From NCBI GenBank assembly GCA_963662275.1, contig OY759316.1, positions 128,001-192,000 of the forward strand: a DNA stretch of 64,000 bases. The letters are read 5' to 3'. The stretch comes from Candidatus Cloacimonadales bacterium (GTDB lineage: Bacteria; Cloacimonadota; Cloacimonadia; Cloacimonadales; DAONDQ01). The position numbers were made by a program, and so were the translations under genes. Below the pieces are notes generated by a model. It was not told the DNA's origin. It did not search any database and saw only the letters and a list, made by a program, of their open reading frames with translations. Positions 43,755 through 64,000 of this stretch are shown piece by piece (the stretch's first letter is position 1; every line of letters starts with the position of its first letter).

Positions 43755-44983
43755 ATGTTATGATAAAAAATATGAGTTGTAAGATTAGAAAACTTAGTGA
43801 ATTGGCAACCGTTCTAAACGGGGCAACCCCGGATACAAACACTCCTGAATATTGGAATGGCAATATATTATGGCTGACACCAAAAGACATTGGCAGGCTT
43901 AGTTCAAAGTTCATCAGCGATTCTGAACGGAAAATAACAGAACTTGGACTGCAAAGCTGTTCTTCTACAATAATTCCTGAATACTCTGTATTATTAACAA
44001 GTAGAGCACCTGTAGGGAATATAGCCGTTAATACTGTCCCTGTATGTACGAATCAAGGTTTTAAGAGTATTATCCCTAAAGAAGGTATTTATTGGGATTA
44101 TCTTTACCATTATTTATGCTTTCTTCGCCCAACATTAGATAGTCTGAGCCACGGTAATACTTTTATGGAGATTATGAAGGAAAAAGTCGATTCCTTAGAT
44201 ATCCTTATACCGGATAAATACGAAGATCAAGTAGCAATTGCCAATCAGCTTGATGACAAGCTCCAAAAAGTTGAGAAATTACATAAAGCAATATTGATGC
44301 AGGAAGAAGCTTTCCAAAATCTATACTCAGCTTATTTTAGGGATGTATGGCCTTGGAATCCTCTTGATCCTCAACCTGATGGATTAAAATGGAAAAAATC
44401 TTCATTAAAGAAATTGTGCATAGATATAAAAGGTGGCGGTACACCTGATAGGTCAAATCCAGATTACTGGAATGGAGACATTCCTTGGATTTCAAGTGCA
44501 GATATAATCAATTTATACACTGTTCAACCAAGAAGATATATCACACAGAAAGCAATAAAAGAATCTGCAACAAATATAGTTCCTAAAGGCAGTATAATCA
44601 TAGTAACCAGAGTCGGAGTGGGAAAACTATGTGTAGCTCCTTTTGATTTATGCTTCAGCCAAGATTCACATGGATTGATTCTTGATACTAATCAAATAAA
44701 TCCAAATTATCTTCTATTGTATCTTTTATCCATCATGAAATCTGTGATATTTTCATCCCAAGGATCAACCGTTAAAGGTATAACACGCGATGTGTTAGAA
44801 ACAATACCAATCATAATACCAATTGATCATATAGAACAAATCACAATTGCTGAAAAACTATATAGTATATTCGGACATCTTGACCAAATCAATCAAGATT
44901 TGGGAAAACAGAAAAATGCAATATTCTCATTAAATACGACAATACTCAATGAGACTTTCTCAAAAGTAAAGGAATCATTATGA
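43751..44983 (+). CDS. hsdS: Type I R-M specificity subunit (two TRDs)
   Basis: GATP..YWNG and GGTP..YWNGDIPW, plus conserved P..EQ..IA repeats. Confidence 0.9.
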   Translation: MNVMIKNMSCKIRKLSELATVLNGATPDTNTPEYWNGNILWLTPKDIGRLSSKFISDSERKITELGLQSCSSTIIPEYSVLLTSRAPVGNIAVNTVPVCTNQGFKSIIPKEGIYWDYLYHYLCFLRPTLDSLSHGNTFMEIMKEKVDSLDILIPDKYEDQVAIANQLDDKLQKVEKLHKAILMQEEAFQNLYSAYFRDVWPWNPLDPQPDGLKWKKSSLKKLCIDIKGGGTPDRSNPDYWNGDIPWISSADIINLYTVQPRRYITQKAIKESATNIVPKGSIIIVTRVGVGKLCVAPFDLCFSQDSHGLILDTNQINPNYLLLYLLSIMKSVIFSSQGSTVKGITRDVLETIPIIIPIDHIEQITIAEKLYSIFGHLDQINQDLGKQKNAIFSLNTTILNETFSKVKESL

Positions 44984-46575
44984 ACTCAACTAAAGCTCAA
45001 AAGAATGGCAAATCTGTAAATACGCAAGCCAATATGGACAAAACGATTAAATCAATCTGCGATATATTACGCCGCGATAAAGCCAAAGGTGCCCGTCTCT
45101 ATATACCTGAATTAACCTGGATGCTTTTCCTATGTTATCTGGACATCATTGAGATAGAACAGAAACAAAGAGCGCAGGCATTGGGGAAAGACTATTCTCC
45201 GATATTGGAATCACCGTACCGCTGGCAGGATTGGGCTGCGCCATTCGACCGCAAGAAAGACCCTGATGAACTGATTAGGAACCAGGAACAGGGATGGAAA
45301 CGCTGTGAACTCAGCAACAAACGGATGGGTTCCTTCCTCAAGTTTGTGAATGAAGAGCTGTTTCCCCATTTGATGAATCTCGAAAGCAATTTCAATGTGA
45401 CACATAAGCAGCGGATCATCTCTGAAATCTTTAAGACTAAACAAAATACGATCCTCGATTCCGAAAACAACTTGCAGGACGTTTTGGATAAAGTGCATGA
45501 TCTCGCCAATTCAAAGATCGACGACACACACTTGTTTCCTATTTCACAGGCATTTGAAGGCATACTGCCCAGCCTGGGTGAAAAGAAGAATGATGGTGGA
45601 CAGTTTTTCACTCCCCGCGAAGTGATTCGTGTGATCGTGGATATCGTCAAACCAAAACTCGGTTGTACCATCTACGATCCCTGCTGTGGAACAGGCGGTT
45701 TTTTAATTGAAGCCTACAAATATCTCCTGAAACAAAATCCTTCCTCTACCCAACTCGAACAACTCAAAACAGAAGCCTTCTGGGGTAGAGAAGATGCAGG
45801 GGAAGTAATACCTATCCTGTTAGCCAATCTTCTGCTGCATGATATCGATTTGCCCCATATCTGGCATGGTAATACCCTGACCGGTAAAACAACCTATGGT
45901 GAGTTATTTGCAGGTGCTCCCAATCAGTTTGATTATATTTTAACAAATCCGCCTTTTGGCAGCAAAGAGAGCCTTTCAGCCCAGTCCAGGTTTGCCTTTA
46001 AAAGCGGAAAAGCCCAGATTCTCTTTTTACAGCATATTATCGATAGCTTGGCTGATAACGGAGTCTGCGGTATGGTAATCGATGAAGGTGTTTTATTCCA
46101 TACAAAAACCAAAGCGTACGAACAGACCAAACGCAAACTACTGAACGAATGCAATCTGTTTTGTATTATAAGCTTGCCGGGCGGTGTATTTGTTAATGCC
46201 GGTGCCGGTGTTAAAACCAATCTGTTCTTCTTCCAGAAAGGCAAACCAACCAGGAAAGTCTGGTATTATGATATGACCCTCGACGATGAATTCAAAACAC
46301 GAAAAGTCAACAAAGGCACACCTTTTCTCTCTTCCCATTTCAATGATTGCCTCAGACGCTTAGCCCTACCGGAAGATCACCAGGAACGCATCAGTGAACG
46401 AAGCTGGTTCCTGACGATAGCAGAAATTGAAGCCAGAAACTATGACCTGAAAGCTGTGAATAATAATGCTCCTGACTTCTCTGATAAACGTACATCAAAG
46501 GAATTGATTGAAGTGATTCAGAAGGCTCAGGAAGAGATAGGGGAATTGCTTGAACAACTAACAAAGGAGAAGTAA
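44980..46575 (+). CDS. hsdM: Type I R-M N6-adenine methyltransferase
   Basis: GQFFTPR, DPCCGTGGF and NPPF motifs. Confidence 0.93.
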   Translation: MNSTKAQKNGKSVNTQANMDKTIKSICDILRRDKAKGARLYIPELTWMLFLCYLDIIEIEQKQRAQALGKDYSPILESPYRWQDWAAPFDRKKDPDELIRNQEQGWKRCELSNKRMGSFLKFVNEELFPHLMNLESNFNVTHKQRIISEIFKTKQNTILDSENNLQDVLDKVHDLANSKIDDTHLFPISQAFEGILPSLGEKKNDGGQFFTPREVIRVIVDIVKPKLGCTIYDPCCGTGGFLIEAYKYLLKQNPSSTQLEQLKTEAFWGREDAGEVIPILLANLLLHDIDLPHIWHGNTLTGKTTYGELFAGAPNQFDYILTNPPFGSKESLSAQSRFAFKSGKAQILFLQHIIDSLADNGVCGMVIDEGVLFHTKTKAYEQTKRKLLNECNLFCIISLPGGVFVNAGAGVKTNLFFFQKGKPTRKVWYYDMTLDDEFKTRKVNKGTPFLSSHFNDCLRRLALPEDHQERISERSWFLTIAEIEARNYDLKAVNNNAPDFSDKRTSKELIEVIQKAQEEIGELLEQLTKEK

Positions 46576-48302: not shown

Positions 48303-48336
48303 AAAGAGGGCGTGCTTCCGCACGCCCCTACTTTGT
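48303..48336 (+). terminator. Probable terminator after the defence operon
   Basis: gggcgtgc-ttcc-gcacgccc hairpin followed by a T-rich run. Confidence 0.6.
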
Positions 48337-48634: not shown

Positions 48635-49336
48635 CTATAAGAACAGATTTTTTAATAAGAGTTTATCTGCTTGCAACGTTTGAGAAAGACCAGTAAAAAC
48701 TACTTTACCAATCTTCATTACATAAGATCTATCGCTAATTTTCAACACATCTGAAACTTTCTGTTCAACAATTAAAATGCTTACCTGTTGGTTTTGATTT
48801 ATTTCGACGATTTTGTTAAATACAGTGCTAACCTTATCGGGTGCTAATCCGAGAGATGGTTCATCTAGCAATAACAGCTTTGGAAGTGTAATAAGGGCTC
48901 TAGCCAAAGCCAACATTTGTTGTTCACCTCCAGAAAGGGTACCAGCATATTGCTTTAATCGATCTTTTACTTCAGGGAACGTAATTAACACATTTTCAAT
49001 ATTTTGTTTTAATAATTTATTAGAAAGATGAATACCACCTAGTTCAAGATTTTCCATGACTTTTAAATCGTTGAATACTCGATTTCCTTGGGGAACATAT
49101 GTTATTCCCATTTTAACATTCTGAGCTGGAGACAAACCATTTATAGTCGAAGAATCGTAAATTATATCACCATTCCATATAGGAATTATTCCGCATATTG
49201 TTTTCAATACAGTTGATTTGCCAGCACCATTGGGTCCGATGAGTGCTATAATTTCGCTTTCTTTAACTTCCATTGATATATTATAAAGAACTTGTTTCAA
49301 ACCATAGCCTGTTTCGAGATTTTTGATTTCCAACAT
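48635..49336 (-). CDS. livF: Branched-chain amino acid-type ABC ATPase (LivF-like)
   Basis: GPNGAGKST, LSGGEQQM, LDEPSLGLAP and VEQ motifs. Confidence 0.9.
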   Translation of the reverse strand: MLEIKNLETGYGLKQVLYNISMEVKESEIIALIGPNGAGKSTVLKTICGIIPIWNGDIIYDSSTINGLSPAQNVKMGITYVPQGNRVFNDLKVMENLELGGIHLSNKLLKQNIENVLITFPEVKDRLKQYAGTLSGGEQQMLALARALITLPKLLLLDEPSLGLAPDKVSTVFNKIVEINQNQQVSILIVEQKVSDVLKISDRSYVMKIGKVVFTGLSQTLQADKLLLKNLFL

Positions 49337-49344
49337 TATGAACC

Positions 49345-50100
49345 TCAGTGCAGATAAGTCTCAATAACCTTTGGATCATTTCTAACGAAATCTGGTTTCC
49401 CTTCACTAACGATCGTTCCACTATCCATGAATATTACACGGTCACAAATCTTCATAACAGCATCTAAATTGTGCTCTATTAGTATCACAGTCTTGCCTAG
49501 AGAAGGTAAACTCTTTATAATTGTGAGCATGGATTCGATAGTTTCAGGAGCTATTCCAGCAACGGGTTCATCAAGCAAAAGGACTTCAGATTTTGCAGCT
49601 AGACAACAAGCGATAGTTAGTAGTTTTTGCTGTCCATAAGATAATTTTTCAGCTGGATCATTTACCTTATTCCAGATACCCATTTCTTTCAATAACACCA
49701 TTGCTTCAATTTTGTTAGCAGTTTCTTGTTTTAAACAGTATTTCCAGTTAAAGAGAGTTCTATGCAGTTTTTCCCCCGGCTGGTTCTGAAATGCTAAGAG
49801 AACGTTATCCAAAACGCTTATTTGTTTAATAAGACGAAGATTCTGGAATGTCCTACTGATTCCAAGTCTTGTAATCCGAAAAGGGACAGCATTTGTAATA
49901 TCTTTGCTTTTAAAGATCACTTTCCCGTTATCGGGTATTACGAATCCACTTATTATATTAAAGAGAGTAGTTTTTCCTGCTCCATTGGGTCCTATTATTC
50001 CTAAAATCTCTCCTTTTTGTAAAGAGCAGGAGAAACCAGAAAGGGCACAAATTCCATTGTAACTTTTGTCCAGTAGCTGAATGTCAAGGATCCCGACCAT
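49345..50100 (-). CDS. livG: Branched-chain amino acid-type ABC ATPase (LivG-like)
   Basis: GPNGAGKTT, RTFQ, LSYGQQK, DEPVAG, IEH and DPKVIETYL motifs. Confidence 0.9.
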   Translation of the reverse strand: MVGILDIQLLDKSYNGICALSGFSCSLQKGEILGIIGPNGAGKTTLFNIISGFVIPDNGKVIFKSKDITNAVPFRITRLGISRTFQNLRLIKQISVLDNVLLAFQNQPGEKLHRTLFNWKYCLKQETANKIEAMVLLKEMGIWNKVNDPAEKLSYGQQKLLTIACCLAAKSEVLLLDEPVAGIAPETIESMLTIIKSLPSLGKTVILIEHNLDAVMKICDRVIFMDSGTIVSEGKPDFVRNDPKVIETYLH

Positions 50101-50101
50101 T

Positions 50102-50983
50102 TTAGAGTTTTCCTTTCAAAAATGAATATTCGCCGATGAGACCTCTAGGTCTCCATAACATAAATGCAACAAGCAAACCCCCGTAGATAATTTGTCTAAA
50201 ATTAGCAGCTATGGAACTTGGAAGTCCAATGAAACGCAAAATCTCAGGTAGAATCACAAGAAGAACTGAACCAATAACTGGTCCCCACATGCTACCTGAG
50301 CCTCCAATTATTACAATAGAAATCATGAAGATAGATTCCATTACAGTGAAACTGGTTGGATCTATAAAACTAATGTAATAGGCAAATAAAACTCCAGCAA
50401 TTGCAGCTAAGGCAGAGCCGATTGTGAAGACTAAAATTTTATATGAAGCTACATTTTTTCCTGTTGCTTGGGATAAAACTTCATCTTCACGGATCGCTTT
50501 CAACACACGCCCAAATGGTGAAATGATAATTCGTTTAATGAACAAGAAAGTAAAAGCACCAAAAAAAGAAACAAGTAGAAGAAAGCCAAATGTCGTGGAA
50601 AACTGTATCCCGAAAATTGATGGAATTGGAATACCCGGTAAGCCAATAGGACCACCTGTAAAGGAAATCAAATTGTTTAATATATTGAAAGAAATTACCT
50701 GCAATGCGAAAGTAGCAATTACAAAATAGTCATCTTTAATTCTGAGAGTCGGAATACCAATCAATGTACTAGAAACAATGCTAGTTACAATAGCAAAACT
50801 GAGCGTTAAAATGAAAGGACTATGGAGTTTTATTGATAACAGTGCAGCGGCATAGGCACCGATACCATAAAAAGTTGCATGAGCTATAGAAAGCAAACCT
50901 GTGTAGCCCATGATTAGGTTTAGTGATATTGTAAGAATAGAATAAATACCAATTAAAATAAAGATATGTATCAAATACTCCAT
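50102..50983 (-). CDS. livM: Branched-chain amino acid-type ABC permease (LivM-like)
   Basis: SLNLIMGYTGLLS.AH, GR.LKAIREDE and IGGSGS motifs. Start MEYL at 50983. Confidence 0.9.
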   Translation of the reverse strand: MEYLIHIFILIGIYSILTISLNLIMGYTGLLSIAHATFYGIGAYAAALLSIKLHSPFILTLSFAIVTSIVSSTLIGIPTLRIKDDYFVIATFALQVISFNILNNLISFTGGPIGLPGIPIPSIFGIQFSTTFGFLLLVSFFGAFTFLFIKRIIISPFGRVLKAIREDEVLSQATGKNVASYKILVFTIGSALAAIAGVLFAYYISFIDPTSFTVMESIFMISIVIIGGSGSMWGPVIGSVLLVILPEILRFIGLPSSIAANFRQIIYGGLLVAFMLWRPRGLIGEYSFLKGKL

Positions 50984-50993
50984 TCTATATCCC

Positions 50994-51875
50994 CTACACC
51001 TCGGTTTTGAGAAATTGTTTTCGAAAAATACCTTTTGGACGTATAGCAAGAAAACTTAACAGCAAAATAAAAGCAGTTACTTCCCCCCACTGTGCTCCGA
51101 ATTGCCAACCAGCTATCTGCTGTAGAGTTGCTAAAATGAATGAGATTAAAGCAATTGAACAAGTTTTCCCATTTCCATTTATCACAACAACAACGATACC
51201 TAGCAATAGCATAGGTAGACCCATCGTCGGTGTCATTCCAACATCGTAAGCTTGAAGAATTCCAGTTGTACTCGCAATAAAAGAACCTAAGCAGAAGCAA
51301 ATTCCAGTAACTTTGTCTATTTCAATCCCACTTATCTTTGCTAACTCTTGATTGTTAGTTATTGCCCGCATAATTAAGCCAATTTTGGTTTTATCGATAA
51401 ATAAAGTCTTTGAAAGTAGAATGATTATCGCAAAACCGATTAGAATCAATTGGATGGGTGTAATCAAAGCTCCAAATAAATTGAGCGCTGGGGTAATTGA
51501 AGCGTTGCTAATTATTTTTGTATCGTCCCCGAATAGCAAAGATATCACATTCTGAATAACTGTATAGAGACCAAGGGAAGAAAGTAAAAGGACTAAAGAG
51601 GACGCATCTCGATGTCTCATTGGCCGATATACTGCCCAATCTAATAACCAACCTAATCCTGTTCCTGCTATTAACGCAAGAGGAAAAGCAGCATAGATTG
51701 AGAGGTGAATGACCTGAGAAAAAGCAAAAAAACTGTAGGCTCCAAATGTGATGATTACAGCATGAGTAAAATGAAAGAATCTAACTGCTGAGAATATTAT
51801 AGAGAAACTGCTACTTATAAGAAAGATTATGGAAGCAGAAATTAGAATATTTACAATGAATTGTTCCAATACCAA
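50994..51875 (-). CDS. livH: Branched-chain amino acid-type ABC permease (LivH-like)
   Basis: FHFTH, G..MRA...N..LA..SGI and RPKGIF motifs. Confidence 0.88.
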   Translation of the reverse strand: MVLEQFIVNILISASIIFLISSSFSIIFSAVRFFHFTHAVIITFGAYSFFAFSQVIHLSIYAAFPLALIAGTGLGWLLDWAVYRPMRHRDASSLVLLLSSLGLYTVIQNVISLLFGDDTKIISNASITPALNLFGALITPIQLILIGFAIIILLSKTLFIDKTKIGLIMRAITNNQELAKISGIEIDKVTGICFCLGSFIASTTGILQAYDVGMTPTMGLPMLLLGIVVVVINGNGKTCSIALISFILATLQQIAGWQFGAQWGEVTAFILLLSFLAIRPKGIFRKQFLKTEV

Positions 51876-51878
51876 TCC

Positions 51879-53351
51879 TTAACGTCCGATATTTTCACAT
51901 TCGGCGCTTGTATCTTGTTGTACAAAATCTAACCACTCTACTTTATCTAAAATCAATCCTAATTGTAGAAGATAGGTTGCAAACTCCTGGTAACTCTCTA
52001 AATAATCAGGATATTTCTGAATCATCTTTCGAACTTCATATGAATAATTTACTGACCCATAGAAGGACTGATAAAGAAATTCTTTAATTTTGTTATACTC
52101 CGAAATTGAAATTCTTGAATTGTAAACAACAGGCATACTGACTGTATCAAAATCTTCCCAATTATTAGTTACCAGTAAGTTTTGATATGACACCCAGTCA
52201 TCAGTTCCAGGGAAAGGGGTAAAATAACTAATTTTGATTTCATTAGTATTTAATTTCTCAAGAAAAGTGGTCATAGTTTCTAAGAGATATTCAGGTGTTT
52301 CCCATGGAAATCCGATAATAAGGAAAACTTTTGTGATTATTCCCAGATCATTACACTTGCTGAATAGGCAATTCAGTTCGTCAAGACTGGCACTATCATT
52401 GTGTTTTAGTGTCTTACGCATTTTTATGTCAGCTGTTTCAACGCCAAAACCTATTTTACTACACCCCGCGGAAGCCATATCTTCAAGTAGAGTCATATCC
52501 AATGATGTTTTAGCCATGCAGAACCATCTTGCTTGTTCAGGAATTCCAGATTTCTGTAACTGTTCACATAGTTCATAAGTCCATTTTTTATCTTCTCCAA
52601 ATGCTTGATCTATGAATACTAACGAGTTGCAACCGGAATCAATAATAACTTTTTTAATCTCATTCACAGCAGAATAAGGTGTTCGAGTAATTAGTTGTGA
52701 ACCCCATACTAAATGAGAAGCACAAAATGAACAGTTGTTGTTACATCCTCGCGATAAGAGAAAAGACGCTGCCCCCGTCTGAATTGACGGTGATGGAAAC
52801 ATTAGTCCACGAAGTCTGCAGTTCTGTATATCCTTGACGCATCTCAATGGAGATGGTTGATTATCTAACAATTGGATTCTTTCCGCTCGAAGAACTTTTG
52901 ATTTTCTTGCAATTACAGATCTTGTTTCTTTGTTAGAAAGCTCATACATTATACTCAGAATAGCTTCCTCCCCTTCTCCAACAACAACATAATCGAACAA
53001 CTCAGTACCTGAATCTGCTGGTAGCGCGCTTACATGATAGCCTCCAACAATTAAAATAGACATTGGACTAATTCTACGAACTTGAGAAGCTAACGAGATA
53101 GCTTTGGGCCACTCAGATGTAGTTGCTGAAAAAAGAAGTATTCTTGGAGTATATTGTACTAAAAGCAATGCTTCCTCAGCTGTTACGGTTTTTAAAGAAA
53201 AATTCACCTTTTGTAAAACTGCTGCTATTATGTTATGAGTTAAAGTAGTTGGGTAATCATTAAGTAAATTTGGCATAATTGACTCAAGGTCAATCCAAAG
53301 CAAATCTTTCATTTCTAACTGCATTAAATTACTTGGTTTTATCTTGTCCAT
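51879..53351 (-). CDS. B12-binding radical SAM enzyme (class B methyltransferase-like)
   Basis: VGGYHVS and VVVGEGE (cobalamin-binding domain), SRGCNNNCSFC, GVET, IIGFPWET and TPFPGT. Confidence 0.9.
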   Translation of the reverse strand: MDKIKPSNLMQLEMKDLLWIDLESIMPNLLNDYPTTLTHNIIAAVLQKVNFSLKTVTAEEALLLVQYTPRILLFSATTSEWPKAISLASQVRRISPMSILIVGGYHVSALPADSGTELFDYVVVGEGEEAILSIMYELSNKETRSVIARKSKVLRAERIQLLDNQPSPLRCVKDIQNCRLRGLMFPSPSIQTGAASFLLSRGCNNNCSFCASHLVWGSQLITRTPYSAVNEIKKVIIDSGCNSLVFIDQAFGEDKKWTYELCEQLQKSGIPEQARWFCMAKTSLDMTLLEDMASAGCSKIGFGVETADIKMRKTLKHNDSASLDELNCLFSKCNDLGIITKVFLIIGFPWETPEYLLETMTTFLEKLNTNEIKISYFTPFPGTDDWVSYQNLLVTNNWEDFDTVSMPVVYNSRISISEYNKIKEFLYQSFYGSVNYSYEVRKMIQKYPDYLESYQEFATYLLQLGLILDKVEWLDFVQQDTSAECENIGR

Positions 53352-53444: not shown

Positions 53445-54608
53445 TCACTCTATTGCATCAAATAAAAGTTGACTATCTGAATCCTTAGTAATTGTCACTC
53501 CACAAAATTCTATTGGTTTAGAATCAGATTGATTTTCAATTCTCTCCAAAAGGCTGGCAAGTTCCTCAGCAGACATGGTTTTGGTCTTCATGAAGCAATT
53601 ATCGAACAGTTTCAAGTATTTATGTTCTGGTTCGAGAATCAGAGTACATAATTTTTCTTCTCCATTAACTCTTACATCTGTAGAAGCTTCTGTGGGATCA
53701 TTCCATTTAATAACCGCTTTCTGGTCAAACATCTGATAATCAACGTTAGCTAAGCCACAAGAACAATATGCTTTGCACAGTGTTTTTTCATATGCAAATC
53801 TAGTAGATATACTATAATCACTCATTTTCATCGAAAACCTTAGAAAACATTTTAACGCCTGACGGTTATTAATACTGAAAAAATCGTTAAGTTTATTTTC
53901 TGCTATTATCACGAAACGCTTTTTCACTTCTGTAACATTAGCACTTAAAAATGCCTTGGCGTGAGGTGGAAAATCGTTAAAATCAAGTTGATCAGTAAGT
54001 GCACGTTTACGTTTTTCCGGAGATTCTTCAAATACATTCTCAAACCACTCTTTCGGAGTATATGGGCATGTCATATATATGGACTTATGTGTGAATGGTA
54101 ACAACTCATTAATTATCTCTGAATACTCTGTAGCACTGGTTACTATTTGAATTTTTGTGGGAGATAGAAAATCTTTGCTTAATTTATGCGAAATAAATAA
54201 AGGAACAATCCACTTAGTTTTTGTCGGGATATTTTCTGATAAACGAAGGAGACTCTCAAAATTACCTTCATCTGTATGGAATGCTACGTATGGAGATAGA
54301 CGATCAAGAGAGTTCATAATATGTGAAAAATATTTCTCTTTAAACTGTATGTCTATATCATTAATTAATTCCTTTGTTTGTTTTCTATCAATTATTCTTA
54401 TTAATCCTAGAATATTATCTGAAATAAGTGCACAGAGACTTATGATGATAAAGTTCCAAGTTCCTATTCCTAAGCATTTAGGAACTGTCTGATGAGCAAT
54501 AATAAGTCCAATGATTATTCCAACACCATATTTAGATATCCGATATAGAGTATTCCAAGTGTGAGTACTAGATTGGTTGTTTTTCTGTTTTCGCTTTTTA
54601 TTACTCAT
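53445..54608 (-). CDS. Membrane protein of unknown function (2 N-terminal TM helices + ~300-aa soluble domain)
   Basis: 387-aa ORF beginning 2 nt after the rSAM stop codon, with two hydrophobic segments at about residues 28-72. Confidence 0.75.
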   Translation of the reverse strand: MSNKKRKQKNNQSSTHTWNTLYRISKYGVGIIIGLIIAHQTVPKCLGIGTWNFIIISLCALISDNILGLIRIIDRKQTKELINDIDIQFKEKYFSHIMNSLDRLSPYVAFHTDEGNFESLLRLSENIPTKTKWIVPLFISHKLSKDFLSPTKIQIVTSATEYSEIINELLPFTHKSIYMTCPYTPKEWFENVFEESPEKRKRALTDQLDFNDFPPHAKAFLSANVTEVKKRFVIIAENKLNDFFSINNRQALKCFLRFSMKMSDYSISTRFAYEKTLCKAYCSCGLANVDYQMFDQKAVIKWNDPTEASTDVRVNGEEKLCTLILEPEHKYLKLFDNCFMKTKTMSAEELASLLERIENQSDSKPIEFCGVTITKDSDSQLLFDAIE

Positions 54609-54609
54609 A

Positions 54610-55752
54610 TCACCTCCATTCTTCTATATATTGAGTAACATCAAAATCACTCAGATCAACAAAGATGCATGATGTCTTTTGTCCATTTATGAATCTTTTA
54701 TGCATTGGTCCTCCATCGCAGTATGCCCATTCTGAACACTGAACACAATCACCTGTTTTTCGCCAAGATGCATCTCGGAAAATCTGATACCGGTTTTCCC
54801 AAACTTCATGAATATTGTCTGTGCGAAGATCTCCCTGTATAAAATCTCTTGATATGTTACTACATGATGCAAGTTTACCATCGAATAGAATGCCCAGGTT
54901 ATTCAATCCTGCAATACAGTGAAAAATAAAAGGTCGCACACGTCCTTCAAGTTCTGTACCAAGCCATCCACCACATCCAAGTTCTACCATTGTTGAAGAT
55001 GGATTCGAATAAGTTGAACAAGAATTATCATATTCCTTCTTAAGAAAATCAATCACTCTCAGTAATTGGTTTGGTTTAAGGAGGTGATCAGAATTCTCTT
55101 GCACACGTCCCATAAGATCAATAAACATTACACGAAAAACTCGAGGTTTTATCTCATCCTTGACAAATTTAAAAAACGATTCAAGTTCATTGATATTGCC
55201 TGAATGAGCAACGAACGAAACAGTTACAACATAGCCCGCTGCGACTGTAAGTTGTGCAGCATTAACTGCTTTTACCCATGTCCCTGGTATTCCCCTGAGG
55301 GTGTCATGAGATGATTCGAATCCATCAATACTGATGCCTAATCCAGTAACTCCGAGGTTTTTTAATTCTTTGAGGATAAATGGGTTTTCCGAAATAAAAA
55401 CTCCATTCGTCTGGATATCTATATTTCTATAATAAGGCCAGCGATTGATAGTTTGCAGGATTGTAAGTAGGTCGTTTCGAACAAAAGGCTCTCCGCCAGT
55501 GATATTTATATGCCGAAAATGGTTCATATCGAAATCTTGTGCGATTTCGTTAAAAGCTTCAATAATTTCATATTTCGTTAGTTCAGAAGCAATATCAACT
55601 TCTTCAGAAGGAGAACCACAATGCGAGCACATAAGGTTGCATCTTCGAGTAGCTTCCCAACTAATGATTTGGAGAGGATGCTCCTTCTTAAGGGTTTCTA
55701 TTCGAGATTTCCAATTTTCAAAGAGTGGTTTTAAAACCTCATAATCTGTCAT
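54610..55752 (-). CDS. Radical SAM/SPASM-domain enzyme
   Basis: CNLMCSHC, TGGEP, TNG and SIDG..SHD..RG. SPASM region C-x12-G-x4-C ... CVQCSEWAYC. Confidence 0.92.
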   Translation of the reverse strand: MTDYEVLKPLFENWKSRIETLKKEHPLQIISWEATRRCNLMCSHCGSPSEEVDIASELTKYEIIEAFNEIAQDFDMNHFRHINITGGEPFVRNDLLTILQTINRWPYYRNIDIQTNGVFISENPFILKELKNLGVTGLGISIDGFESSHDTLRGIPGTWVKAVNAAQLTVAAGYVVTVSFVAHSGNINELESFFKFVKDEIKPRVFRVMFIDLMGRVQENSDHLLKPNQLLRVIDFLKKEYDNSCSTYSNPSSTMVELGCGGWLGTELEGRVRPFIFHCIAGLNNLGILFDGKLASCSNISRDFIQGDLRTDNIHEVWENRYQIFRDASWRKTGDCVQCSEWAYCDGGPMHKRFINGQKTSCIFVDLSDFDVTQYIEEWR

Positions 55753-55928
55753 TATGCAAAAACTTGATCGAAATAATCGTTATTCTCATCATCAGGATGG
55801 CTTCCATACATGTTGTTGACGTATTCTACTGGATTCGACCACTTGAGCATTCTTCTTTTAAATTCGAGTACAGAATCTTTATTTTTTACGGCGGGTGCAT
55901 TGTTGTCCATCTGTGTAGTGTTTGACAT
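55752..55928 (-). CDS. Unannotated 58-aa peptide, putative radical-SAM substrate (RiPP precursor)
   Basis: AAGGAG RBS, then MSNTTQMDNNAPAVKNKDSVLEFKRRMLKWSNPVEYVNNMYGSHPDDENNDYFDQVFA*. The stop overlaps the rSAM start (TAATG) and the ORF fills the livK-rSAM gap. Confidence 0.78.
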   Translation of the reverse strand: MSNTTQMDNNAPAVKNKDSVLEFKRRMLKWSNPVEYVNNMYGSHPDDENNDYFDQVFA

Positions 55929-55940
55929 AAGATAATCTCC

Positions 55941-57062
55941 TTATTTTAAGTTAACAGGTTGACCATTAATAATAGTCTTTTTTGCAAATGATTCTGAAAA
56001 AAGATCTCCGTTTGGACGAAAAGCGATTTCGCCAGAAACGCCCTGAAAAGTAACTCCTAAAAGTGCAGAGCGAATCTTTTCAGTGTTGATTGAATTTGCA
56101 GTTTTCACAGCTTTGAAAATCGCCATAGAGGCATCGTAAGCATAGGCTCCAAGTACATCTGGTTCTTCACCATATTTGGTTTTGTATTTCTTAGCGAATT
56201 CGATGAAGCTTGCAGTTTTACTATCAGATGGCGCAGTATAAAAAACACCTTCCGCAGCTTTTCCAGCTATTGTGATAAACTCGGGGGAACCCCAGTTATC
56301 ACCCCCGAAAAGGGGTAAGTTAAGTCCAAGTTCTTTCATCTGTCTAACAAAGACTCCTCCTTCTTTAGGATAAGTTGGAGAGACAATGGCATCGATGTTT
56401 TTCATTCTTTTAAGTTTAGTTATAATTGTACGAAAATCTGTTGAATTTTCTTCCACTCCTTCAGCATGTACTACCTGACCTCCTAATGCTTCAAACTTGC
56501 TTTGAAATCCTTCAGAAAGTGGTTTACCCCAAGCGTTATTTGAAAATACAATCGCAACTCTCTTTTTCCCAATTCCGTATACCCATTTTGAGAGTACTTC
56601 AGCTTGTTGATCATCAGCGGGACAAGTTCGGAAGAAATACTCCCCACCTTGAGTAGATAACTCAGTAGATGATGCTATTGGAGAAATTAATATAACCTTG
56701 AATCTGCTTGCTAAAGGTGCTATAGCTAGACATACGCCACTACCTGCAGAGCCAAATACAACCGGAATTTTATCAATAGAAGCAAATTTTGTCATAATAC
56801 TGACAGCTTCTTTCTTATCATTACGGTCATCCTGAAAATCAACAACAACCTGTTTCCCAAGAAGACCTCCTTTTGCATTCTGGTCTTCCACAGCCATTTC
56901 AATTCCTCGTTTTGCTTTTTGACCATATGATGCTACTTCGCCAGTTAAAGGGAAGGTTGCACCGAAAGTGATCGTGTTTGTTGTTTTATGCCAGGGATGA
57001 AAAATAATTAGTCCAGCAACAATGACTAGCACTAAAATGATAGGCCAAATTGAATTTCTCAT
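55941..57062 (-). CDS. Periplasmic binding protein, LivK/LivJ (HAAT) type
   Basis: N-terminal anchor, PLTG..ASYG, GGLLG, FFRTCP.D..Q and AYAYDA motifs. Confidence 0.9.
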   Translation of the reverse strand: MRNSIWPIILVLVIVAGLIIFHPWHKTTNTITFGATFPLTGEVASYGQKAKRGIEMAVEDQNAKGGLLGKQVVVDFQDDRNDKKEAVSIMTKFASIDKIPVVFGSAGSGVCLAIAPLASRFKVILISPIASSTELSTQGGEYFFRTCPADDQQAEVLSKWVYGIGKKRVAIVFSNNAWGKPLSEGFQSKFEALGGQVVHAEGVEENSTDFRTIITKLKRMKNIDAIVSPTYPKEGGVFVRQMKELGLNLPLFGGDNWGSPEFITIAGKAAEGVFYTAPSDSKTASFIEFAKKYKTKYGEEPDVLGAYAYDASMAIFKAVKTANSINTEKIRSALLGVTFQGVSGEIAFRPNGDLFSESFAKKTIINGQPVNLK

Positions 57063-57239: not shown

Positions 57240-59137
57240 CTGGAGGTGTCCCGTAACTAGCATTAATCTATTTGCTTATTTTGTAAAATATATGATTGTT
57301 TTTAGATGTACACTAAATTACTCAATAGTTTCCGAAAAGCGATGCAAAGACAAGGAAAATGGAGTAATATTTACCTAATTCATGTTTGAATTCTGGTAGG
57401 AAGAGTCTTCATTAGGCTTTTCCTTCAGTATTTTGTAAGTGTAGAAACATTTTCCCTATATTATGTCCTAAAAAGAGGAGGTATAACTGTTCCTTGCATT
57501 TTCTCAATGAACGGACAGTAAATCTCTCAAACTTCCTGTTCCACTTCATGAAAGCAAATACAGCCTCCGGTTCGATGCCTCTTTGCTTTCTCAGCTTGTC
57601 GCCTTTTTCAGAAAGCAGATTATTGACGGTCTGACGTTTTAGGGGAGCTATATGAGGATCGTAGGTCAGCAATTTATGAGTTTTATCCTTGTAGGGAATA
57701 CACTTTTTATTGTGAGGACATTCTATGCAGTCATTACATATATAGGTTTTCACGATTCGTTTCGGACCGTTCTTCTCTGTCTCTTCTTCCTTGATTTTGA
57801 CCAGTCTCCGATTAAATTGACAGCCCCACTCATCATGCTCCTCATCATAGCTAAAGCCTGTCAGAAGAGAGTCCCGATAATCTCTCTTATAATCCTGGGT
57901 CTTGAGATAGCTTGTTATCTCTTTTTCAGCAGCATAATTCAAATTCAGCGCAGTGCCATAGGCAGCATCTCCAACAACGTCGGTAGGATATTGTCCCAAT
58001 TCATCATGCATTTGCTCCATGAGATTGGGAAATTCAACGGTTTCTTTAGGGATATTGAATAAGTGAATGCCTGTGACAAATTGCTCTGAAGTTCCGATAC
58101 TGGCAACATAACCCGGTGCCAGCTGTCCATTTTTCAATCGCATAAATGTGGCATCATTATCAGTCTTGGATGTGCTGCTGCGTCCTTCTCCAATTATCTC
58201 AAGCTGTTGCTCATATTTCTCCAGCTTAGTTATATCATTGCTCTTTGATTTGGAGATTTCGCGCAAAAGAGATTTGATTTTCTTGATAGCCCGAGTATCT
58301 GACGGATGATTTTTCTGTAGTCGGGACATTGCTTCTTTCAGCTTGTTTTCTGCTGAGACCAGTCTATCTCTGATCTGTTCAGATGCGACTGTAGCAGTTT
58401 TCTCTGATTCAACCGCATGCAATTGCTCACCAAGCTCAAGAAGATCAGCGGTTCCATATTGCTGTTGCTCTTCCTGATTATATTCCTCGATCTTTTTAAA
58501 CAATCCCTCAACTCGTGTCTTGACCAGTTCCTGATAACGAAGCGCATTGCTTTTCCAGATGTAGGAATTCTTGCCGGCATTTGCGTGAATCGTCGTCCCG
58601 TCAACAAAACAGGTGTCGAGATCAAGATATCCTAATGATGATGCTTTCAGTACTACCTGATAAAATACATCAATAAGAATATCAGAACACTTAGTCCAGG
58701 CAAAGGTGTTGATCGTTCTGAAATCAGGTTCCTGTTCTCCTGCCAGCCAGATAAAATTGATGTTCTCCCGAACAGCCTTAGCTATCTTCCGACAGGTATA
58801 AATACCATTGATATAGGCGTATACAATGATCTTCAACATCATCTTGGGATGATAAGCAGGTGTACCTTCATCAGAGTATCTTGAGTATAGCTCAGTTAAG
58901 TCCAGTTGCTCAATGATATCGTTAACATAACGAACCATATGTTTGGGGGGTATTTTTTCGCTTATATTAAGCCCGAAAAGAGTACCCTGATCCGGGTTGT
59001 GTTCTCTGAAATTCATAGTGTCTCTCTATACTTAGTTTTTAAAGGCAATAATACACCATAGAACAATATGTCAAGATATATAACTAATTATTTAATAGTT
59101 GCTATTTTTCTATCATTTAGTTTCGGGACATCTCCAG
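57240..59137 (-). mobile_element. IS1182-family insertion sequence
   Basis: Transposase bounded by ~20-bp inverted repeats ctggaggtgtcccgtaacta / tagtttcgggacatctccag. Exact ends are approximate. Confidence 0.85.
57412..59016 (-). CDS. IS1182-family DDE transposase
   Basis: G.PAYHPKMMLK, PDFRTI, VDGT.I.ANA, TDNDATFMR, GDAAY and R..EPEAVF motifs. Confidence 0.92.
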   Translation of the reverse strand: MNFREHNPDQGTLFGLNISEKIPPKHMVRYVNDIIEQLDLTELYSRYSDEGTPAYHPKMMLKIIVYAYINGIYTCRKIAKAVRENINFIWLAGEQEPDFRTINTFAWTKCSDILIDVFYQVVLKASSLGYLDLDTCFVDGTTIHANAGKNSYIWKSNALRYQELVKTRVEGLFKKIEEYNQEEQQQYGTADLLELGEQLHAVESEKTATVASEQIRDRLVSAENKLKEAMSRLQKNHPSDTRAIKKIKSLLREISKSKSNDITKLEKYEQQLEIIGEGRSSTSKTDNDATFMRLKNGQLAPGYVASIGTSEQFVTGIHLFNIPKETVEFPNLMEQMHDELGQYPTDVVGDAAYGTALNLNYAAEKEITSYLKTQDYKRDYRDSLLTGFSYDEEHDEWGCQFNRRLVKIKEEETEKNGPKRIVKTYICNDCIECPHNKKCIPYKDKTHKLLTYDPHIAPLKRQTVNNLLSEKGDKLRKQRGIEPEAVFAFMKWNRKFERFTVRSLRKCKEQLYLLFLGHNIGKMFLHLQNTEGKA

Positions 59138-60193: not shown

Positions 60194-62060
60194 TACAATC
60201 ATATGATACAAGGTCGGAACGCTGTTTTCAAACGGCTATGCATTAATAAAAGGCACAAAATATAGCTTACTATAGGAAGGTTAGAAAATTAAGGTAGAAA
60301 AACCTCCCTCGTTGATATACATAGATCAAATCAACAAAGGAGGTAACAATGATTACCACATCAAAATCTAACCCAAAGAGGTTTTTTGTCAACTCAGAAA
60401 TGATGCTTGTTGGCATTGATATCAGCAAGCACAAACACAGTGTGTATTTTTGTGATTTTACAGGTGAACGGAAGCGTAAGCCATTTTTTATTACAAACAA
60501 TCATGATGGTTTTCAGTATCTGCTAAAAGAAGCAGAACAGCAAAAGCGTTTGTGGAATCTGAACGAGATTGTATTTGGAATGGAACCAACAGGTTCATAT
60601 GTAAAGCCACTCCAGTACTTCTTGGAAGAACGCTGCTATCAAATCCAAAGCATCAACCCATTACACACTAAAAGATGGAAGGATATTGAAGATAATCATC
60701 CATCCAAGAATGATTTGAAAGACAGTATTATCATTACCTCTCTGTTAAGAATGGGCAAGAGCATCCATCATCGGAGACCTGAAGGTGTTTTCGCGGAGTT
60801 GAACAACTATGCAGCTTATTATCACCAGTTAATCACAGATATTCGCAGGCAGAGGAACTATCTGGAAGCCTCTTATGCCTGTTACTTTCCTGAATTGAGT
60901 AACTTTTTCAAATTTAACAGTACGGGAGTAATGTATATCATGGAGTGTTTTCCTCTTCCTCAGGATATCGTAAATGCAGGATATGAGAATTTTCTGAAGA
61001 TTATGAAAACAAAAAGCAAAGGGTGCATAGCTACAGAGAAGCTTCACAGTTTATATCAGGTATCTCTAACAAGTATTGGCATGAGTCAGGGAGCGGATAG
61101 TGCGAGAGTGGTCATAAATGCGATCTATGAGGATATCAGCTATAAACAATACCATCTCAAACAAATCAAAACAGCAATCATGACATGTGTAGATAAAATC
61201 AGTTATGGATCGTTATTGGTGACAATACCTGGTTTGAGTAAAGTATCAGTGGGGTTAATTCTGGCGGAGACTGGAGATATCAATCAATATGGTCGATATC
61301 AGGATTTAGTCAAACTTGCCGGATTGAGTTTAAAACACAATCAATCAGGAGAATACCATGGGCAATATCATATCTCTAAGGTAGGAAGAGTAAGGTTGCG
61401 AAGGATCTTGTATATGCTTACTCTGGAAATGATTATAAACAATCAATTAATCAATCAGATATATAATTATCAAGTAAAAAAGCGAGGTAATAACAAGGTC
61501 AAAACTATCGTTTCTTTGAGCAGTAAATTACTGGGAATCATGTACTCAATGGTTAAATATGAAAGGTCGTTTGATCCTGAACAGCGAAAGCTATATGCAG
61601 GTTATTTAACTGAAAATAATCAGTGAGCCAAGAAAAAAAAGTAGTCAAAAAATAATGGAGGTGTTTAGATTGGTTCACTCGCCGGATGATGTAGTCATTA
61701 GGCACTAAGGCTTGTTTACAAGACCTTCTACCATAGCTCATTATAGCACACCGGCGGGTATTATCTCAGATAGGATAAAGTAAGAATAGGATACCATCAG
61801 AAGGTAATCCAGTATATCAGCAAGATCGGGATGTAGAACCAAGAGAGCTTTGATAAGTAATATTCGATTTAATCATAGAATTCAGATCGAAAATCAGCGT
61901 CTCTGGAACCCTGCAATGACGCTTCGGTACCCTACGCGTCATTGCAGGGTTCCAGAAAGCCAAGTACTATGAATATATTATAATATATAACTATCTAACT
62001 ATATCAGCCTAATAAATTAAGCATTGCAACGCACATGCTGAAATCACGTATCATATAAAT
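60194..62060 (+). mobile_element. IS110-family element, IS1111-like organisation (ends approximate)
   Basis: IS110 transposase, a short sub-terminal inverted pair atatgatac (60201-09) / gtatcatat (62048-56), and a ~430-bp 3' non-coding segment. Confidence 0.65.
60349..61626 (+). CDS. IS110-family DEDD recombinase/transposase
   Basis: VGIDISK, MEPTG, KNDLKDS, TIPG, AGL....NQSG and ISKVG motifs. Confidence 0.92.
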   Translation: MITTSKSNPKRFFVNSEMMLVGIDISKHKHSVYFCDFTGERKRKPFFITNNHDGFQYLLKEAEQQKRLWNLNEIVFGMEPTGSYVKPLQYFLEERCYQIQSINPLHTKRWKDIEDNHPSKNDLKDSIIITSLLRMGKSIHHRRPEGVFAELNNYAAYYHQLITDIRRQRNYLEASYACYFPELSNFFKFNSTGVMYIMECFPLPQDIVNAGYENFLKIMKTKSKGCIATEKLHSLYQVSLTSIGMSQGADSARVVINAIYEDISYKQYHLKQIKTAIMTCVDKISYGSLLVTIPGLSKVSVGLILAETGDINQYGRYQDLVKLAGLSLKHNQSGEYHGQYHISKVGRVRLRRILYMLTLEMIINNQLINQIYNYQVKKRGNNKVKTIVSLSSKLLGIMYSMVKYERSFDPEQRKLYAGYLTENNQ

Positions 62061-62345: not shown

Positions 62346-64000
62346 ATGAAGTACTTTCTATTTTTAATTGTTCTACTTATTGCCTCAGTTTCAAGTGTGT
62401 TTGCAGAAGAATGGATTAACTATGGTAATCAAAATTTGATACTTTGCTCTTCACAGGAAGGTGACAATTTATGGGTAGGGGCTTGGGGAGGTCTGGTAAA
62501 GCTCAATATCGTAACCGGACAGAAAATCTATTACAATACAACAAACTCGGGACTTGTCGATAACAATGTACAATGCATTTTGATAGATAGCCAGGGGAAC
62601 AAATGGCTTGGTACAGATCGTGGACTTTGCCGTTTTGATGGAACGAACTGGATAACATGGAATGAAGATAATTCTGAAATACCGAATAATTATATTACAG
62701 GTATTGCAACTGATGCATATGCTAATATATGGATAACAACAGAGGGGGGATTGGGCAGGCTGAATAATGGTACTTGGACGAATTGGAATGAAACGAATTC
62801 TGCTCTGCCTACAAATCATCTATCGTGTATTGCCATTGACAATAGTGGTACAAAATGGATTGGATCAAGTGAAGGTGTTATTACTTTTTCAGGAAATACC
62901 TGGAACCAGCTTACGATGGATGATCATGTATCAGCAATTTCAATTGATAACCAGGGGAATAAGTGGTTTGGTTTCGGTAACTCCGGTCTTGGAAAACTCA
63001 GCGGTACGACGTGGACTTATTATAATCCTTCAAATTCTGATATTCCGGACGTCACTATAGAATGTATGGCAACAGATGCAGCAGGAAATGTATGGTTATG
63101 TACCGAAGAAGGTGAAGCAACTATTCGTGGAGGGTTAACAAAATTTGACGGAACGAATTGGACGACTTGGAACACGGCAAATTCAAATATTCCTTTTGAT
63201 ATAATCACATCAATTACAATCATGAATGGAACAGGTGTATGGACAGGAATGTTGTTTAGCGGGATGGTCAGATTTGACGGAACTAACTGGGTCTCATATT
63301 CGTTATCCAATGCAGGCTATTTCTTTCCAGCCGTTAATTGTATCGAAATTGACAGTTCACATAGAAAATGGATCGGAACGGAAGGAGGTTTATCTTTATT
63401 TGCTGGTAACAATTGGAGTTCATGGAGTCCTTTTAATACTCAAGAACAAGTTTTGAATGATGTAGCTCATATAGCAGCAGATAATGATAATGTTGTGTGG
63501 GTGGATTGTGATAACGGTGAAACAAGGGATATCTATAGCTATAATGGGTCAGTATGGACACTGCACCAACCTTCAGAATATGGATTGCAAGTAATAGATA
63601 TTAGTTGTATTAAAACCGATAACCAGAATAATAAGTGGATAGGAACAGGTCAGAGTTTAGTGAAGTTTAATGGGACAAATCATATCATCTATAATTCAAC
63701 AAATTCCCCGATCACCAGCCAGATCAATGATATTATAAGAGATCTGTACGGTAACTTCTGGGTCGCAACTGCAGAAAATGGACTACTTCAATTTAACGGA
63801 ACTGCCTGGACTGCCTTGAACACTTCAAATTCAAATATTCCATCCAACAGAATTAAACGGATAGCAATCGATAATGCTGGTAATAAATGGTTAGCTACTG
63901 CCAGTGGTCTATGCCGTTATGACGATTTAACCTGCACTATCTGGAACACGCAAAACTCTGGCATCCCCACGAATGATGTCTCGTCAGTTGTAACCGGTCA
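62346..64000 (+). CDS. Secreted beta-propeller protein (two-component-regulator-propeller-type repeats), 3' end outside window
   Basis: AAGGAG RBS, MKYFLFLIVLLIASVSSVFA signal peptide, and repeats such as NSGLVDNNV..I.ID..GNKWLGT..GL.RFDG.NW. Confidence 0.85.
   Translation, partial: MKYFLFLIVLLIASVSSVFAEEWINYGNQNLILCSSQEGDNLWVGAWGGLVKLNIVTGQKIYYNTTNSGLVDNNVQCILIDSQGNKWLGTDRGLCRFDGTNWITWNEDNSEIPNNYITGIATDAYANIWITTEGGLGRLNNGTWTNWNETNSALPTNHLSCIAIDNSGTKWIGSSEGVITFSGNTWNQLTMDDHVSAISIDNQGNKWFGFGNSGLGKLSGTTWTYYNPSNSDIPDVTIECMATDAAGNVWLCTEEGEATIRGGLTKFDGTNWTTWNTANSNIPFDIITSITIMNGTGVWTGMLFSGMVRFDGTNWVSYSLSNAGYFFPAVNCIEIDSSHRKWIGTEGGLSLFAGNNWSSWSPFNTQEQVLNDVAHIAADNDNVVWVDCDNGETRDIYSYNGSVWTLHQPSEYGLQVIDISCIKTDNQNNKWIGTGQSLVKFNGTNHIIYNSTNSPITSQINDIIRDLYGNFWVATAENGLLQFNGTAWTALNTSNSNIPSNRIKRIAIDNAGNKWLATASGLCRYDDLTCTIWNTQNSGIPTNDVSSVVTG

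Follow-up and report, generated by a model that had tools for sequence, protein, structure and literature searches.

The 58-codon gene examined here, from a Candidatus Cloacimonadales bacterium, encodes a peptide that most likely serves as substrate for a radical S-adenosylmethionine (SAM) enzyme with a SPASM domain, whose gene lies directly downstream and is translationally coupled to it. The window, as the whole analysed stretch of 64,000 nucleotides is called below, spans positions 128,001 to 192,000 of the forward strand of contig OY759316.1 (assembly GCA_963662275.1), and all coordinates refer to it. The substrate reading is supported by conserved synteny, the conserved coupling of the two genes and a predicted substrate-like binding of the peptide by the enzyme, which together also support the suggestion of a first-pass annotation that the peptide is precursor-like and coupled to the radical SAM gene. 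The best reading of the system is that it is splicease-like, belongs to a separate enzyme clade and, with a peptide core that is near-invariant and common to bacteria and archaea, is embedded in an operon for an amino-acid-type ATP-binding cassette (ABC) importer. The elements on which the argument turns are the following.

55752..55928, minus strand: gene of the 58-residue peptide, a precursor or small substrate protein (open reading frame listing, homologues, alignments, codon pattern)
55937..55942, minus strand: AAGGAG ribosome-binding site, 8 nt before the peptide ATG at 55926-55928 (read from the sequence)
54610..55752, minus strand: radical SAM/SPASM enzyme of 380 residues, its ATG overlapping the peptide stop (family scans, alignment, structure search)

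A small gene kept in front of a SPASM enzyme

The open reading frame (ORF), with its FKRRMLK segment, the W30-S-N-P33 motif and residues Y41, H44, E48 and Y52, is present with the sequence originally quoted for it, and the AAGGAG site and the TAATG coupling to the radical SAM gene are as described. At that junction the peptide TAA (55752-55754) and the enzyme ATG (55750-55752) have one base in common, and at the other end of the gene the TAA of an upstream binding-protein gene (55941-55943) overlaps the ribosome-binding site, giving TAAGGAG. Overlap between the stop of the peptide gene and the start of the enzyme gene recurs in other loci, in the form AAATGA in five of seven, as 8 nt in one and as about 35 nt in one. 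The peptide is encoded once in the host genome and is soluble, with neither signal peptide nor lipobox nor a match to the lipoprotein family TIGR04134. The family is uncurated in Pfam and NCBIfam, neither of which contains a match to the peptide, and the ESM Atlas returned nothing usable for it. Likewise, none of the papers searched prints YVNNMYG, MYGCHP, MYGSHP or EYGCPH, and the one match to NNMYG was an unrelated paper on krill. Antisense to the gene lies a longer ORF of 66 codons (55725..55925, plus strand), which outcompetes the peptide ORF under a longest-ORF filter, and a gene caller might err likewise.

A word-indexed search yielded nine homologous small proteins of 50-68 residues, and from 1.84 billion proteins a profile of 17 sequences retrieved 57 cluster representatives (E<=1e-3), of which 46 also pass E<=1e-10. 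A pattern scan of species-representative genomes located 31 loci, 14 bacterial and 17 archaeal. Going by their labels, the bacterial loci belong to Zixibacteria, Planctomycetota, Acidobacteriota, Armatimonadota, Thermodesulfovibrionia, Bacteroidetes, a SEEP-SRB2 deltaproteobacterium, Bacillota and Patescibacteria, and the archaeal loci to Woese-, Pace-, Nano- and Iainarchaeota as well as two bins labelled Methanosarcinales. A core block of 23 codons, recovered by a regular expression from 23 of the 31 sources, was used for codon analysis. Invariant residues of the core are spelled with two to four synonymous codons, which shows that selection operates at the level of the protein. Mean pairwise differences amount to 12.49 of 23 third positions versus 7.13 of 46 first and second positions, and the median ratio of nonsynonymous to synonymous substitution (dN/dS) is 0.11 in the 35 of 253 pairs that are unsaturated. 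The ORF is thus a genuine, conserved protein-coding gene. That it should be a chance frame without a product, as its shortness and the 66-codon frame overlapping it on the opposite strand might suggest, has a negligible probability against the number of its homologues, the synonymous bias of their substitutions and the conservation of position, ribosome-binding context and translational coupling.

The enzyme exceeds the Pfam cut-offs for Radical_SAM and SPASM, with the CxxxCxxC motif at C38/C42/C45 and eight conserved cysteines in the C-terminal SPASM region. In 26 of the 31 loci, comprising 12 of the 14 bacterial and 14 of the 17 archaeal ones, the gene immediately after that of the peptide encodes an orthologous SPASM enzyme (42-71% identity). 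Seen from the enzyme, the peptide ORF is kept at its position in all seven loci with an enzyme that shares at least 58% identity with that of the window, which answers the question of conservation at homologous loci on which the first-pass annotation had staked its proposal; it is missing from all three loci in which the enzyme is only about 33% identical. A Pacearchaeota locus (L054:7143-9376) carries two SPASM paralogues in tandem behind the peptide gene, which share 42% and 56% identity with the window enzyme.

The conserved core and its predicted place in the enzyme

Four segments of the peptide are distinguished in what follows.

55842..55862, minus strand: residues 23-29, FKRRMLK, proposed recognition segment (R26-M27-L28 invariant in 17 sequences; complex prediction)
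55794..55835, minus strand: residues 32-45, NPVEYVNNMYGSHP, conserved core (alignments and complex prediction)
55803..55811, minus strand: M40-Y41-G42, putative modification site of the form X-Tyr-Gly (across 55 sequences Y41 never varies and G42 is kept in at least 90%)
55770..55775, minus strand: Y52-F53, conserved C-terminal pair (alignments)

Across the family the conserved module reads [KR]-R-[MI]-[LA]-x3-N-P-V-E-x-V-N-N-[MLI]-Y-G-[CS]-H-P. In the 17 close sequences about 25 N-terminal residues vary freely, and R26, M27, L28, W30, P33, V34, E35, V37, N38, N39, M40, Y41, G42, H44, D47, Y52 and F53 are invariant. In the wider alignment of 55 sequences only N38, Y41 and H44 remain invariant, while P33, V34, E35, V37, N39, G42, P45, Y52 and F53 are conserved in at least 90%. 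Position 36, a tyrosine in the window, is F, L, G or P elsewhere in this wider family; position 43, a serine in the window, is C, S, T or A across the family, and position 46 is variable. Position 40 is methionine in 22 of the 23 core blocks and leucine in one, with isoleucine in repeats of two members (P0017 and P0043). Of the residues whose conservation had been proposed as a test, P33, Y41, H44 and Y52 therefore stand, W30 holds only among close relatives (17 of 17, replaced by Y, F, H or S in the wider family), and E48 fails, being part of a variable acidic linker that is not conserved in alignments of 10, 17 or 55 sequences. The two candidate cores named in the first-pass annotation part company here. 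YGSH falls on the conserved M-Y-G-[S/C]-H-P site, whereas the lack of conservation at E48 refutes ENNDY, read as a PqqA-like E-x3-Y core.

A cross-link between Glu48 and Tyr52 made by a PqqE-like enzyme, or alternatively a lasso-type WxxP leader, is accordingly very improbable. Both E48-x3-Y52 and W30-x-x-P33 occur in the window sequence, and PqqE is a distant match of the enzyme (72.5 bits; structure PDB 6c8v at E 4.5e-13). These points are set against the variability of E48 and W30, a PqqE cut-off of 381.35 bits that the enzyme does not reach, and the result that no RiPP recognition element (RRE; RiPP, ribosomally synthesised and post-translationally modified peptide), no PqqB-, PqqC- or PqqD-like protein and no lasso B or C enzyme was found by Pfam and NCBIfam scans of eight operon proteins. 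A lasso peptide was also rejected on this last ground, since its leader protease (B) and asparagine-synthetase-like cyclase (C) were not found among those eight proteins. Mycofactocin was rejected as well: the C-terminus of the peptide is ...DYFDQVFA and not Gly-Val-Tyr, and the enzyme scores 84.3 bits against the MftC family TIGR03962, with its cut-off of 265. The pairs PqqA/PqqE and MftA/MftC resemble the present system in joining a small, strongly conserved peptide to a tyrosine-directed SPASM enzyme, and in its conservation the window peptide resembles a cofactor precursor more than an antibiotic. They differ in that the family here has neither a conserved Glu-x3-Tyr nor a C-terminal Gly-Val-Tyr, the enzyme remains below both cut-offs, and the operon proteins scanned include no RRE of the PqqD/MftB type.

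The module can also be repeated or combined with other domains. Two profile-matched stretches occur in 4 of the 57 matches (P0017, P0031, P0043 and P0056), with the repeat unit [KR]-R-I-[AS]-x3-N-P-V-E-x-V-N-N-[MLI]-Y-G-[CS]-H-P. Two full tandem modules are present in P0017, P0031 and P0043, as one would expect if the site of modification were repeated. P0056 has a degenerate first copy, in which both Y41 and G42 are replaced. The first module of P0043 has arginine in place of H44 and retains N-N-M-Y-G-C. The Y-F pair is single in all four and follows the last repeat. In three other members (P0049, L047 and L055) the module is fused behind an N-terminal domain with weak histidine-phosphatase-like matches (E ~6e-4), and in P0053 it stands at the N-terminus of a protein of 193 residues. 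The two archaeal loci among these (L047:6377-8673 and L055:4244-9680) have the module as the C-terminus of a 250-residue protein, have no SPASM enzyme, and carry downstream one to three proteins of about 493 residues with a phosphoenolpyruvate-utilizer swivel domain.

The structure prediction of the complex proposed in the first-pass annotation was carried out with enzyme and peptide, using alignments of 7 and 17 sequences respectively, together with SAM and three 4Fe-4S clusters. It returned an ipSAE score of 0.93, compared to 0.01 for the best of three controls. Among 157 solved complexes 116 reach this mark, as do 2 of 215 mismatched pairs, counts that are only a rough guide here, given our own alignments and the inclusion of small molecules. 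At least 74% of contacts recur between runs, and the partner has a pLDDT of at least 64. Peptide residues 23-29 are predicted to lie on the N-terminal helix of the enzyme, with L28 contacting enzyme residues 10-14, including the invariant F11 and W14, and M27 contacting residues 274-276. Every peptide residue from 33 to 48 is predicted to be in contact with the enzyme, whose contacted residues include 47, 80-86, 110-114, 136-139, 175-179 and 204-205. These are interpreted as barrel-lining strand ends, so that the predicted pose appears substrate-like, with residues 33-48 threaded into the barrel.

Proposed Tyr-Gly splicing and competing chemistries

The spliceases described in the literature belong to the SPASM radical SAM enzymes and cut out tyramine at their defining site, X-Y-G, with MYG and LYG among the natural sites (PMC11414181, PMC10533398, PMC11626197; further sources are PMC9811515, PMC11002830 and PMC10849128). 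In the binary systems there is no Y protein, a helix of the precursor binds the enzyme and the XYG is predicted to lie in the active site (PMC11414181). The favoured interpretation, which we judge to have about an even chance of being correct, is that the peptide is a spliceotide-like precursor spliced at M40-Y41-G42 by an enzyme of a separate clade, encoded within a Liv-type importer operon. Both the chemistry of splicing and the connection with transport are inferred. In the mechanism proposed by analogy, the basic segment K24-R-R-M-L28 would dock on the N-terminal helix of the enzyme (F11, W14) and on a SPASM-side loop (269-276), and in this way the core N-P-V-E-x-V-N-N-M-Y-G-[S/C]-H-P would be threaded above SAM inside the barrel. 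A radical reaction at M40-Y41-G42 would then remove the tyramine part of Y41 and the backbone would be rejoined, leaving an alpha-keto-beta-methionine residue (a ketoamide). A B12-dependent radical SAM enzyme, or a class I methyltransferase in other loci, might add an optional methylation, and the product would act together with the dedicated Liv-type amino-acid importer of the same operon.

The comparison with known spliceotides, both those with a Y protein (PlpX/PcpX) and the binary ones (RhaX/RcsX/RasX), brings out several likenesses. In each case a SPASM radical SAM enzyme is encoded beside its substrate, and the X-Tyr-Gly of the present family has X = Met, Leu or Ile; of the resulting sites, MYG and LYG are known to be spliced in nature. 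The binary systems in particular resemble it in having neither Y protein nor RRE, and in a precursor helix that is predicted to dock while the site is threaded into the barrel. The module of some relatives is appended to larger proteins, which recalls the description of spliceotides as 'peptides and proteins'. Across bacteria and archaea, 939 splicease systems have been predicted (Scott et al., Chem 2022, as cited in PMC10533398), and the present family may already be among those in the supplements of that study.

A second comparison comes from the enzyme itself. Its best curated match is TIGR04133, at 229 bits against a cut-off of 425, with other families at about 100 bits or less. SkfB, MoaA, PqqE and anSME are its nearest solved structures (E 6e-15 to 9e-11). 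Two of the enzymes in the ~33% identity group (L029 and L030) are true members of TIGR04133 (585-590 bits) and adjoin TIGR04134 lipoproteins. TIGR04134 matches were gathered from 41 genomes of that order and one more; the stretches that bear them are L029:3785-4231, L030:4244-5929 and L063-L074, in Bacteroidota-type genomes. A few residues past the lipobox cysteine, E-Y-G-[CVTM]-P is present in all ten strong matches and C-Y-G-[TA]-P in both weak ones; one match has the motif twice. The partners of the TIGR04133 clade and of the window clade thus have in common an X-Tyr-Gly followed by a small residue or cysteine and by proline or histidine (X-Y-G-x-P or Y-G-C in 12 of 12 lipoproteins, M-Y-G-[C/S]-H-P in the window family). 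This suggests that the uncharacterised TIGR04133 enzymes act on the Tyr-Gly site of TIGR04134 lipoproteins. The PlpX splicease family TIGR04103 is the second-best match of one true TIGR04133 enzyme and the fourth-best of the other. The window system differs from this pair in the score of its enzyme and in its partner, a soluble 58-residue peptide instead of a TIGR04134 lipoprotein.

Several observations weigh against splicing. The window enzyme lies outside the PlpX equivalog (TIGR04103 / IPR026482), scoring 96.7 bits against a cut-off of 725, no better than against NirJ/AhbD-type families. A splicease role for the TIGR04133 clade is deduced from the Y-G motif of the partners, and no paper was found that ties TIGR04133 or TIGR04134 to splicing. 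The complex prediction does not tell which peptide residue adjoins SAM, and the operon contains no protease or exporter gene. Five loci have no adjacent SPASM gene (L034, L045, L047, L048 and L055), and in their genomes the enzyme profile finds one distant SPASM match (162 bits) and, in the other four, none, although these four genomes are small (0.6-1.5 Mb) and of completeness not given, so that absence of the enzyme is not shown. Finally, the invariance of N38 and H44, and a core of 14 residues that is near-invariant across phyla and two domains of life, go beyond what a need for X-Y-G would by itself explain. Spliceotide cores are described as diverse, and their precursors differ from the window peptide also in the Nif11 or NHLP leader, which the latter lacks.

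The main rival is a different chemistry, in which the peptide is the substrate but receives a C-C, C-O or C-N side-chain cross-link, joining Y41 with H44 or N38 or forming a cyclophane at W-S-N, Y-V-N or Y-G-S. The SPASM enzymes of the streptide, triceptide, darobactin/dynobactin and PqqE type are cross-linkers, as are many SPASM peptide maturases, and WgkB, the KxxxW type, PqqE and MftC are among the weaker NCBIfam matches of the enzyme. The three invariant residues N38, Y41 and H44 are spaced three apart, aromatic-x-x triplets of the kind expected in a triceptide (W-S-N, Y-V-N and Y-G-S) are present, and the predicted binding is compatible with any chemistry on a substrate. This alternative is nevertheless the less likely one, because the third positions of the aromatic-x-x triplets vary (43 and 46), W30 and Y36 are replaceable, the first module of P0043 has lost H44 and kept N-N-M-Y-G-C, and the only element that the substrates of the nearest enzyme family have in common with the peptide is Y-G-x-P. 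A thioether is excluded since Cys43 is not conserved; on the same evidence, a sole cysteine position that is serine in the window, sactipeptides and ranthipeptides were rejected. No family of the XyeB/GrrM/FxsB type occurs in the top 25 of the enzyme's 68 NCBIfam matches.

Importer operon, probable acquisition of the cassette and possible function

The peptide and enzyme genes lie within an operon whose other elements are listed below.

55941..57062, minus strand: LivJ-type periplasmic substrate-binding protein, 373 residues, first gene of the operon (family scans, structure search)
53445..54608, minus strand: protein of 387 residues with one N-terminal hydrophobic segment, without a family in scans (invariant motif C181-x3-P185-x2-W188)
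51879..53351, minus strand: B12-binding radical SAM enzyme, 490 residues, accessory tailoring enzyme (family scans; in some cassettes only)
50994..51875, minus strand: LivH-like ABC importer gene (family scans)
50102..51049, minus strand: LivM-like ABC importer gene (family scans)
49345..50100, minus strand: LivG-like ABC importer gene (family scans)
48635..49336, minus strand: LivF-like ABC ATPase gene (motifs read from the translation; counterparts elsewhere match LivG)
48307..48328, minus strand: terminator-like hairpin past the last gene (sequence)

The solved structures nearest to the LivJ-type protein are Leu/Ile/Val and broad amino-acid binders. Most bacterial cassettes are arranged like that of the window: a binding-protein gene lies directly upstream of the peptide gene in 12 bacterial loci, a number that includes the window itself and a copy truncated at the end of its contig, with LivHMGF downstream. 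Between the SPASM enzyme and the permeases, the bacterial cassettes carry a member of a divergent family of 365-425 residues in six loci, a member of a family of 575-633 residues in three, and otherwise proteins with a class I methyltransferase domain; a profile comparison of the first two families gave a probability of 0.3, leaving a relationship unsupported. The 387-residue protein belongs to the first of these, in whose six cassettes C-x3-P-x2-W is invariant; it matched only unnamed clusters in the ESM Atlas, and the predicted structure (mean pLDDT 48.4) is too poor for a fold search. The B12 enzyme is regarded as accessory because two cassettes (L038 and L040) carry neither it nor a methyltransferase.

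In archaea the setting is different. A divergently transcribed regulator of about 320 residues with two Lrp/AsnC-type units is found at 15 loci. The archaeal loci also have a methyltransferase of about 215 residues and often a BchE/HpnJ-like B12 radical SAM enzyme, and transporter genes occur within the 7-kb flanks of only one of the 17 loci. In this one (L034), genes for Liv-type binding proteins come directly after that of the peptide, permease genes are present as well, and a SPASM gene is missing within 7 kb. The importer operon in bacteria and the tandem Lrp/AsnC-type regulator in archaea both set the system apart from the described spliceotides.

This genomic setting bears on a further alternative, that the peptide is not a substrate but regulates another protein or serves it as an accessory subunit. 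This partner could be the Liv-type transporter or the radical SAM enzyme, which would then use a small molecule taken up by import. Such a role would account for a conservation across bacteria and archaea that is unusually high for a RiPP, for the place of the genes inside the importer operon in the 12 bacterial loci, for the gene order of L034, for the four genomes with a peptide and no detected enzyme, and for the fusion of the module to other domains in P0049 and P0053. An accessory role is quite unlikely all the same, as the predicted pose fills the substrate cavity, tandem duplication of a module within one peptide is typical of modification sites, and 14 of the 17 archaeal loci retain the peptide-enzyme pair where transporter genes are so rare.

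The cassette looks horizontally acquired in its present host, a member of Candidatus Cloacimonadota whose RpoB matches those of genomes labelled Cloacimonadota/Cloacimonadaceae with up to 76% identity at full length and 81% in a partial match. A search for homologues in relatives of the same order was unproductive, in that none of 60 genomes, one of them of the same genus, contains an orthologue of the enzyme (best non-self match 25% identity, E 1.1e-21), and the operon is flanked by genes that by eye resemble those of restriction-modification systems and transposases. Adjoining the operon terminator, an overlapping type I restriction-modification-like trio, recognised from translations only, comprises a helicase-type R, an S and an N6-adenine methylase with NPPF (41391-46575, plus strand). 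Upstream of the operon are two transposase-like ORFs, one of 534 residues (57412-59016, minus strand) and one of 425 (60349-61626, plus strand). An open-ended ORF of more than 551 codons (62346-63998, plus strand) encodes a signal-like N-terminus and W/G/N-rich repeats of about 45 residues that by eye appear beta-propeller-like.

Splicing at M40-Y41-G42, if it takes place, would define a new clade of backbone-editing enzymes with a soluble substrate of about 35 residues in its conserved part, and would extend such systems to Cloacimonadota, Planctomycetota, Acidobacteriota and the genome-reduced DPANN archaea. To our knowledge, it would also be the first association of a splicease with an ABC importer rather than with an exporter or a protease. 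The family alignments could provide an annotation model for small ORFs of this kind, which are easily overlooked by gene callers. A core that is near-invariant across two domains of life suggests a physiological role rather than chemical warfare. More speculatively, and with a probability that we consider low, the modified N-P-V-E-x-V-N-N-[MLI]-Y-G module could be, instead of a natural product of the antibiotic type, a conserved and reactive protein-borne alpha-ketoamide, resembling a carbonyl cofactor or acting as a dedicated ligand, for the uptake or sensing of amino acids. In bacteria it would serve the importer and its LivJ-like binding protein, which would co-evolve with it, and in DPANN archaea it would stand under the tandem Lrp/AsnC-type regulators. 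If true, this would represent an unrecognised housekeeping use of radical-SAM backbone editing common to both domains.

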